Notes: generated from the sequence alone by a model not told the origin. Shown: positions 38,754-42,266, counted from the first letter of the stretch. The stretch is DNA of 64,000 nucleotides from Escherichia coli (GCF_016026235.1 NZ_CP065613.1); one strand, 5' to 3'. Program-made: numbers and translations.

Positions 38754-41700
38754 ATGGATGAAAATGCTTTAGGGTTTACCTCATACTGGCGCAACTCGCT
38801 TGCGGATGCTGAGTCAGGAAAGGGCAGTTTTGAACGGAAAGACGCCAAAAATTTCACTCACTGGCATGGGATAGCGGCGGGACGTCTTGACGAAGCGATT
38901 GTCAGTAAATTTTTTAAGGGAGAAAAAGACGATGTCGAAACGGTCGATGTCATCTTGCGCCCAAAAGTTTATTTCCGGTTACTGCAGCATGGTAAGGACC
39001 GTTCTGCAGGTGCGCCTGATATTGTTACCCCGATAGTGACGCCAGCCTTGCTAAGCCGTGAGGGTTTTTTATATCCGACGCCAGCGACCTCCATTCCCAG
39101 AGACCTGCTTGAACCTTTGCCAAAAGGAGCATTTTCGATTGGTGAGATTGGGCAGTATGACAAATACAAGACGACCCATACCACGTTCTCTATCAACTTT
39201 GATGACAGCGTTGATAAGACTGCCGAAACGGATGAAGAACGGGAAGCACGATATGCCGCCTTGCAGCAGGAGTGGCGTCAATATCTGTATGACTCAGAGA
39301 GGCTACTGAAGAGCGTTGCCGGCGACTGGATTGAAAAACCTGAGCAATATGAACTCGCTGAGCACGGTTATATTGTTAAAACGGCTCAATCTGGCGGTGC
39401 CAGTTCCCATATCCTTTCTCTTTATGATCACCTGCTTGTTTGCAATAAGGATGTGCCGCTCTTCAATCGCTTCGCCTCGCGAGAGGTTCATGCTGCAGAG
39501 TCTTTGCTGGCCCCAGGAGCAAAATTCAGCGACAGGCTTGGACACTCCGGAGATAAGTTTCCGCTGGCAAAGGCTCAGCGCGATGCCTTAAGCCATTTTC
39601 TGGATGCAAGACATGGCGATATCCTTGCTGTTAATGGCCCTCCGGGAACCGGAAAAACCACGCTGGTGCTTTCTATCATCGCCACGCAGTGGGCCAGAGC
39701 GGCTCTCGAAAAATCTGAGCCTCCGGTTATTATCGCGACTTCAACGAATAACCAGGCTGTAACGAACATTATTGAGGCATTCGGGAAAGACTTTTCGCAA
39801 GGTTCAGGTGCGATGGCCGGGCGATGGTTGCCAGAGCTGAAAAGCTTCGGTGCTTATTTTCCCTCAAGCAGTCGTAAAGCTGAGGCAGCCAAAAAATATC
39901 AAACTGAAGATTTCTTCAACCAGGTTGAGTCAAAAGAGTATGTAGAGGATGCACTGCTGTTTTATCTGGAAAAGGCTAAGGCAGCCTTTCCTGGAAAAGA
40001 GTGTTCATCCCCTGAAAAGGTCATTGAACTCTTGCATGGTCAGTTGGCAGCAAAATCTGAGCAACTGATAAGACTGAACGCAACATGGCAAACGTTAAGC
40101 CAGATTCGGGCTGCGCGTGAGCTTATTGCTAATGATATTGAGCAATATCTCGATAATTTAAATAAATTACTTTCCGGACAAGAACAAAAAGTCACTCTAC
40201 TGAAGAGTGCTAAAACGGAATGGAAAAAATATCGCGCCGGTGAATCACTGATCTATTCATTATTTTCCTGGCTCCCGGCGGTTCGCAATAAGCGACAGTA
40301 CCAAATACAGCTGTTTCTCGAAGATAAATTAGGCGCGCTGATTGCAGGAAATCAGTGGTCTGATCCTGAAACTATCGAACGTAATATTGATGGGCTGCTC
40401 AATTCCGCTGAGCGCGAGCAAACAACATACCGGCAGCAGATTGACTCCGCCCATGAAATCGTTCTTAAAGAACAGCAGGCGGTTCAGGAGTGGCAGAGGC
40501 TGGCATTTGATTTAGGGTATGAGGGCGACGAGGAACTGAGCTTCTCACAGGCCGATGAACTGGCTGATACGCAGATTCGCTTCCCTGCATTTTTACTGAC
40601 GACTCACTACTGGGAAGGTCGTTGGCTGATGGATATGGCCAGCATTGATGATCTGCAGGACGAGAAGAAGAAAAAAGGTGCTAAAGGGGTAACCGCCCGT
40701 TGGCAACGTCGAATGAAACTCACGCCATGTGTGGTGATGACATGCTATATGCTGCCCGGTAATATGCAGATAAGTGAGCACAAAGGACAACGTAAATTCG
40801 AGAAAAGTTATTTGTATGATTTTGCCGATTTACTCATTGTCGATGAAGCTGGGCAGGTGCTTCCTGAAGTGGCTGCTGCCTCGTTTGCATTAGCTAAGAA
40901 GGCATTAGTGATTGGCGATACGGAGCAGATCCCGCCAATATGGAGTATTGCTCCTGCGATTGATGTCGGTAACATGCTGGCGGAAAAAATTCTGTCTGGC
41001 AGTACGCAAGAAGAGATTACCGAGAAATATACGGCAATCGCAGACCTTGGTAAAAGTGCCGCATCTGGCAGCGTTATGAAAATAGCGCAGTTTGCTTCGC
41101 GCTATCAATATGATCCCGAACTGGCTCGTGGTATGTACCTATATGAACACCGCCGGTGCTACGACAATATTATTGGATACTGTAATACGCTCTGCTATCA
41201 CGGTAAGTTGTTGCCTAAAAGAGGGCGTGAAGAGAGCAATTTAATGCCCGCAATGGGGTATCTCCATATTGATGGTAAAGGAGAGCTGGCAAGTAGTGGA
41301 AGTCGATATAATTTGCTTGAGGCTGAAACGATAGCGGTCTGGTTGGCAGAGAACCAGCAAAATATTGAAGCGCATTACGGTAAATCGCTTCATGAAGTTG
41401 TCGGTATTGTGACGCCTTTTAGCGCTCAGGTATCCACTATCAAACAGGTGCTGGGCAAACAAATCAGTACAGGCACGAATGAAAAGTCGCTCACAGTGGG
41501 CACCGTGCACTCTCTTCAGGGAGCGGAAAGAGCGATTGTGATATTCTCGCCAGTCTATTCAAAACATGAAGACGGCGGGTTTATTGATAGCGATAACAGC
41601 ATGCTGAATGTTGCAGTCTCCCGTGCGAAGGACAGTTTTCTGGTCTTCGGCGATATGGACCTGTTTGAGGTCCAGCCAGCCTCATCGCCACGGGGATTAC

Positions 41701-42266
41701 TGGCAAAATACCTCTTTGAGTCAGAGAAGAATGCGCTCTCTTTTGATTATAAAGAGCGTAAGGATTTAAAAACCGCCGGGACCAAAATCTACACACTTCA
41801 TGGTGTGGAGCAACATGATAATTTCCTGAATCAGACATTTGAAAATACCAGTAAACACATCACGATAATTTCTCCATGGCTGACCTGGCAAAGGCTGGAG
41901 CAAACCGGTTTTCTTGATTCCATGATTGCGGCGTGTTCACGTGGAATTAACGTCACGATAGTCACTGACAGAAGCTACAACACTGAACATAATGATTTTG
42001 AGAAGCGAAAAGAGAAGCAGCAGAACTTTAAAGCGGCGCTGGAGAAACTGAATGCGCTGGGTATTGCTACAAAGCTGGTAAACCGTGTTCATAGCAAAAT
42101 TGTTATTGGTGATGATGGTTTGCTGTGTGTGGGATCGTTCAACTGGTTTAGTGCGACACGGGAAGCGCGATATGAACGATACGATACATCAATGGTTTAT
42201 TGCGGTGATAACCTGAAGGGTGAGATTGAGGCTATTTATAATAGTCTTGAGAGGCGTCAGGTTTAG
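38754..42266 (+). CDS. large SF1 (Upf1/DNA2-like, COG1112-type) helicase fused to a C-terminal PLD-family (single HKD) nuclease domain; candidate anti-phage defence protein with Mokosh type II-like architecture
   Basis: 1170-aa ORF; Walker [10 protein letters not shown], motif Ia-like ATSTNNQAV, Walker [17 protein letters not shown], motif [17 protein letters not shown], motif [17 protein letters not shown]; C-terminal [21 protein letters not shown] = H-x-K-x4-D...GSxN PLD motif; about 290-aa N-terminal domain of unknown function. Confidence 0.8.

Follow-up and report, generated by a model that had tools for sequence, protein, structure and literature searches.

Mokosh type II is an anti-phage system made of a single gene, whose product joins a helicase to a phospholipase D (PLD) nuclease. 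In the work of its discoverers, three Mokosh systems defended Escherichia coli, and defence was lost when either the ATP-binding site or the PLD active site was mutated (10.1101/2022.05.11.491447). The verified type II system, as entered in Table S2 of that work (Millman et al. 2022, 10.1101/2022.05.11.491447), is SG150 from E. coli 5-366-08_S1_C1 (IMG gene 2586378093), with a protein of 1171 residues. A type II protein termed EcMokosh II has been reported to be a monomer of ~138 kDa and, against a panel of 11 phages, to protect only against the single-stranded DNA (ssDNA) phage SECphi17 (10.1101/2025.07.10.664194). Here, a gene of this kind, mkoC, is described from a 64,000-nt stretch of E. 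coli DNA (GCF_016026235.1 NZ_CP065613.1; hereafter the window), with gene coordinates counted from its first nucleotide. The open reading frame (ORF) is intact, with an ATG start and 1170 codons plus stop, and the predicted mass of its product is 131.4 kDa. The gene very probably constitutes a one-gene Mokosh type II anti-phage system, its product most likely being a helicase-guided PLD nuclease that acts on single-stranded phage nucleic acid.

Assignment to the family was based on the PADLOC profile MkoC (PDLC03924), which matched with E = 0 and 1684.8 bits, aligning residues 1–1168 of the protein with positions 1–1135 of 1136. An earlier note on this DNA, made from the sequence alone, had pointed to the reported architecture of Mokosh type II; the full-length match bears this out, and a chance match can be dismissed. 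The same note had proposed profile searches and structure prediction for what it read as a superfamily 1 (SF1) Upf1-like helicase combined with a single-HKD PLD nuclease. A Pfam scan agreed with this reading, placing AAA_11 at residues 272–491 and 679–729, AAA_12 at 777–968 (7e-22), and PLDc_2 at 1027–1137 (1e-9), with PLDc also matched. All five motifs quoted in the note were located, at residues 295–303, 694–701, 917–932, 952–966, and 1113–1133. In the family alignment, K301, H1113, and K1115 were near-invariant and D1120 was invariant. By profile, the PLD domain matched Nuc (1byr), NucT (6ehi), and PLD6/Zucchini (4ggj). No NCBIfam family reached its cut-off for the protein, which accounts for the RefSeq names "AAA domain-containing protein" and "DNA helicase"; the present analysis annotates as mkoC a gene that RefSeq labels only "AAA domain-containing protein."

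The window protein was compared with the first 399 residues of the verified SG150 protein, to which it aligned without gaps and with 15 differences (384 of 399 identical). As a full-length proxy for the verified allele, the leuX allele of strain 13KWH46 was used, chosen by upstream DNA equal to that of the cloned SG150 insert: the 399 nt compared, comprising 326 nt of upstream DNA and the first 73 nt of the gene, were 100% identical in 13KWH46 and others. Over its full length, window MkoC was 96.5% identical to the 13KWH46 protein (41 differences), a figure to be read as an estimate for the verified allele, from which the proxy differs at 6 of 399 residues. All 41 differences lay outside the helicase and HKD motifs. 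Among the 120 best database matches, none lay within 3 differences of the verified N terminus. The gene in the window is an allele common in E. coli and belongs to a system that has been validated experimentally; as such, it is already known. The suggestion in the earlier note that it might be a divergent or undescribed variant is not supported, given the full-length profile match, the identity of ~96% to the validated allele, and an occurrence in 16% of complete E. coli genomes.

Distribution of the gene was surveyed across 5426 complete E. coli genomes, of which 888 carried mkoC, always on the chromosome, and 839 held at least 80% of it. Nucleotide identity of these copies was 95–99.7% in all but five genomes. 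In five sampled genomes the layout was the same, with a tRNA-Phe gene, an integrase 198 nt downstream, and mkoC 452 nt beyond the integrase; the arrangement was seen both at pheV (speC–yqgA side) and at pheU (dsbD–dicD side), with variable cargo downstream. In 13KWH46, a reference-type mkoC lies in a leuX defence island (locus L009, 5300..14399) at tRNA-Leu near ahr and yjgR, where genes for an HNH endonuclease, a hypothetical protein, and a restriction endonuclease lie around it, together with one labeled "phospholipase D-like domain-containing anti-phage protein." This neighborhood fits the report that Mokosh II in E. coli tends to co-occur and co-localize with type IV restriction systems, as in 882 of 975 instances (10.1101/2022.08.21.504612). 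Among the sampled genomes, mkoC was found at no fewer than three tRNA-linked hotspots (at least pheV, pheU, and leuX), each time at the tRNA-adjacent head of an island.

Such a distribution is in line with a gene carried as accessory defence cargo. A helicase-nuclease for housekeeping or repair, with no part in defence, would accord with the noncommittal RefSeq labels and with the relationship of the helicase to DNA2, but such a gene would have to be reconciled with its presence in only 16% of complete E. coli genomes, its confinement in sampled genomes to tRNA-linked islands at three different tRNA sites, a GC content of 47% compared with 51.4% for the core flank, and the demonstrated anti-phage phenotype of a near-identical allele. 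We find this explanation scarcely credible and reject it on the patchy, island-bound distribution.

An AlphaFold2 (AF2) model of window MkoC, built on the family alignment, was confident (mean predicted local distance difference test score (pLDDT) 92.4, predicted template modeling score 0.88). Foldseek searches with the whole model gave Senataxin, UPF1, IGHMBP2, Aquarius, DNA2, and nsp13 as best matches, with E values of ~1e-16 for Senataxin (SETX), UPF1, and IGHMBP2. The insertion in RecA1 was modeled as a bundle of very long helices over residues 372–654 (individual helices at 420–458, 462–495, 508–530, 538–586, and 597–630). Accessory 1B/1C domains of Upf1-like helicases occupy the same place in RecA1. 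An NCBIfam search with the insertion gave no match, and sequence searches of the PDB did not find a solved MkoC structure.

For relatives, 1.84 billion cluster representatives were searched and 1139 were found at E ≤ 1e-30; alignments spanning essentially all 1170 residues were obtained for many of the best 150, down to ~31% identity. An alignment of 59 sequences showed 8% gaps and a mean identity of 27% for the N-terminal 265 residues, 3% gaps and a mean identity of 23% for residues 351–600, and better conservation of the RecA domains (mean identity 51–60%). Every aligned relative had the insertion. Because they are rarely gapped across full-length relatives, the N-terminal domain and the insertion are standard features of MkoC. 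The earlier note had found neither region explicable; this stands for the N-terminal domain insofar as Pfam and NCBIfam searches gave no match, and falls insofar as both regions belong to the family and are not peculiar to this gene. Modeled alone, the N-terminal domain had a pLDDT of 87.9. No relative was found for it among solved structures, and the matches listed from AFDB50 were helicase or helicase-PLD proteins, or else short fragments or unnamed proteins close in size to the domain itself. It holds invariant residues within the motifs YWRNSLAD and IPRDLLEP, and we infer a sensor or regulatory role.

Several relatives of 970–1030 residues keep the N-terminal domain and the helicase without the PLD domain (e.g. 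locus L006, 2851..6973, and locus L007, 4001..7724). In one of these, a GGDEF-domain gene lies 8 nt upstream; in another, a gene for 209 residues, without a Pfam or PADLOC match, lies 8 nt downstream. Such relatives may reflect swapping of effectors on the MkoC chassis. The N-terminal domain, the helical insertion, and the linker hold most of the differences between the pheV/pheU allele group and the leuX allele. A wider proposal, in which the integrase-linked pheV/pheU alleles would have a phage range unlike that of the leuX allele, with the N-terminal domain as the specificity-determining sensor of a chassis that swaps effectors, seems to us unlikely.

With regard to its setting, the gene was found, as the earlier note had it, as an ORF of 1170 codons 3′ of a dead integrase at pheV. 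The site was identified by speC and yqgA flanking the tRNA-Phe gene, as at the pheV loci of other genomes. Two lesions affect the integrase: a nonsense mutation at codon 58, which encodes Glu in strain G1/2, and an IS110-family insertion of 1437 bp at ~36561..37997, with flanking matches that overlap by 5 bp. An ORF in this insertion (36707..37501) matched the IS110 transposase model, ending at profile position 247 of 343. The two lesions are independent, and with its integrase dead the island in the window is probably immobile. The cargo 3′ of mkoC (42267..64000) consists of IS3, IS66, and TraF remnants followed by virulence genes; a defence gene thus stands at the entry of a virulence island bearing sigA, iha, and iutA. 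Coordinates of all features are collected in Table 1.

Table 1. Coordinates, strand, and supporting evidence for mkoC, its domains and motifs, and surrounding features of the window
Feature	Coordinates	Strand	Evidence
mkoC, Mokosh type II single-gene system (very probable)	38754..42266	+	ORF list; PADLOC MkoC PDLC03924
N-terminal domain, ~residues 1–265, mixed alpha/beta, family-specific; motifs YWRNSLAD (11–18) and IPRDLLEP (114–121)	38754..39548	+	
RecA1, first part, SF1B helicase	39549..39803	+	Pfam AAA_11, AAA_30; motif positions
Walker A GPPGTGKTT, residues 295–303	39636..39662	+	
Motif Ia STNNQAVTN	39741..39767	+	
RecA1 insertion, ~residues 351–655, nearly all long helices	39804..40718	+	AF2 model
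RecA1, second part, with motif II	40719..41033	+	Pfam; conservation; motif positions
Motif II LIVDEAGQ, residues 694–701 (DEAGQ 697–701)	40833..40856	+	
RecA2, with motifs V and VI (VI, NVAVSRAKD)	41034..41723	+	Pfam AAA_12 (7e-22)
C-terminal PLD-family nuclease domain, single HKD	41799..42263	+	Pfam PLDc_2, PLDc
HKD motif residues H1113, K1115, D1120, N1130; G1127 also present	42090..42152	+	
Conserved upstream region, presumed native promoter	38560..38753	+	98% mean column identity, six pheV/pheU loci
tRNA-Phe (pheV), island attachment site (context only)	35325..35400	+	ARAGORN; speC/yqgA flanks
P4-type tyrosine integrase pseudogene (context only)	35598..38302	+	Stop at codon 58; IS110-family interruption
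sigA	44737..48594		Similarity to annotated E. coli genomes
iha	56372..58462	−	Similarity to annotated E. coli genomes
iutA	61880..63979	−	Similarity to annotated E. coli genomes

Relative to alleles of 1171 residues, window MkoC lacks one codon between nt 41462 and 41463, after residue 903 (GG or GD to G). When an 81-nt probe across the deletion was searched against the 5426 complete genomes, the best identity was 96.4% and none shared the deletion. In the family alignment the site is a length-variable loop in RecA2, just before motif V, and the loss of the codon would be expected to have no functional effect. It nevertheless bears on the possibility that mkoC is a decaying or inactive passenger of a fixed island, left functionless by the deletion or by loss of the integrase. 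Consistent with such decay, the island is eroding, with its doubly damaged integrase and with insertion sequence (IS) fragments just 3′ of the gene; truncated copies exist in other strains, as in CFT073, where an IS3 element interrupts mkoC at 50% of its length; and the deletion is private among the genomes searched. The ORF is, however, full length with all catalytic motifs intact, the deletion keeps the reading frame and falls in a loop whose length differs across the family, conservation with intact loci is 98% over the 200 nt 5′ of the gene, and the nearest database protein is only 4 substitutions and the one-residue deletion apart. Taken with these observations, an inactive passenger appears very improbable.

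The upstream DNA contains a near-perfect 23-nt palindrome, ATATGGACAATAGTTGTCCATAT, at 38678..38700, ~55 nt 5′ of the mkoC start. Across six pheV/pheU loci the palindrome hardly varies, and a degenerate version occurs 5′ of the verified leuX-type insert; it could serve as an operator or belong to the promoter. The proximal ~150 nt 5′ of the start align with the cloned verified insert.

For the mode of action, the model that we favor is that the helicase module would load onto single-stranded nucleic acid exposed during infection, whether ssDNA genomes or replication intermediates or possibly RNA or R-loops; that ATP would be used to engage or track the bound strand and not for catalysis; and that the PLD domain would cut the strand, whereupon phage replication would stop. 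In vitro, EcMokosh II cut only ssDNA substrates and nicked plasmid, and its Walker A and Walker B mutants cleaved all the same (10.1101/2025.07.10.664194). A search of a library of papers did not find one dedicated to the mechanism of Mokosh.

Several points weigh against this assignment and model. The ATPase is required for defence in vivo but dispensable for cleavage in vitro. A monomer with one HKD conflicts with the usual active site built from two; nucleases of the single-HKD kind, Nuc and Zucchini among them, dimerize to form their active site, and by analogy, as a guess, a transient and substrate-induced dimerization of MkoC might supply the second HKD. The phage phenotype is known for the reference allele, and the window allele is 41 differences away from the reference-type leuX allele, including the one-residue deletion. 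A consensus scan of the + strand 5′ of mkoC found no sigma-70 site. Finally, the discoverers suggested RNA or RNA/DNA hybrids or intermediates as the target (10.1101/2022.05.11.491447), and the in vitro panel of 2025 covered no RNA substrates (10.1101/2025.07.10.664194); for these two reasons the ssDNA-targeting model is incomplete.

The last point leads to an alternative in which the target that MkoC both senses and cuts is phage RNA or RNA/DNA hybrids, in the manner of MOV10L1 with Zucchini/PLD6 in piRNA biogenesis, and the cleavage of ssDNA in vitro is a side activity. Besides the proposal of the discoverers and the makeup of the substrate panel, the closest helicase folds are those of the RNA helicases UPF1, Senataxin, IGHMBP2, and Aquarius, PLD6/Zucchini is among the profile matches of the PLD domain, and Cury et al. 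found that YjhR, the fused Mokosh protein of E. coli, resembles in structure MOV10L1 (TM-score 0.74) and PLD6 (TM-score 0.63). DNA2 and nsp13-type relatives, in turn, show that the helicase fold also acts on DNA. The best sequence match of the PLD domain, Nuc, is an endonuclease of both DNA and RNA without RNA specificity. The sole direct biochemistry is cleavage of ssDNA, along with protection against an ssDNA phage (10.1101/2025.07.10.664194). On balance, RNA as the principal target is possible but doubtful, and the reading that we retain is a helicase-guided nuclease whose target is phage nucleic acid in single-stranded form.

Among known systems, SG150/EcMokosh II is the closest in that it belongs to the same family, with the same domain order and catalytic motifs, a length of 1171 compared with 1170 residues, and a shared proximal upstream region. 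The two differ in setting, as the window gene lies at pheV beside an integrase, whereas the reference-type copy at leuX lies between HNH and restriction endonuclease genes. Mokosh type I likewise has an Upf1-like helicase core and a PLD nuclease, but there the MkoA helicase carries a serine-threonine kinase domain and the PLD protein, MkoB, is separate, whereas the window has one kinase-free gene. Type I profiles matched only the shared cores of window MkoC, MkoA at residues 692–993 (5e-37 and 6e-32) and MkoB at 1010–1137 (2e-16), and those for MkoA left the N-terminal domain and the helical insertion uncovered. Type I was rejected, as the Pfam scan of window MkoC found no kinase family and there is no separate PLD gene, the neighbors being the integrase pseudogene and IS and TraF remnants.

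Further afield, MkoC shares its helicase fold and motifs with UPF1, Senataxin/Sen1, IGHMBP2, MOV10L1, and DNA2, at 12–14% identity in structural alignments, and its HKD nuclease domain with Nuc, NucT, and Zucchini/PLD6. In contrast to Nuc and Zucchini, which act as dimers, EcMokosh II has been reported to be monomeric. The N-terminal domain, without a known relative by fold, sets MkoC apart from both the Upf1-like helicases and the PLD nucleases. The pairing of a helicase with a PLD protein recalls that of MOV10L1 with PLD6 in the piRNA pathway, and in MkoC the two activities are fused in one chain.
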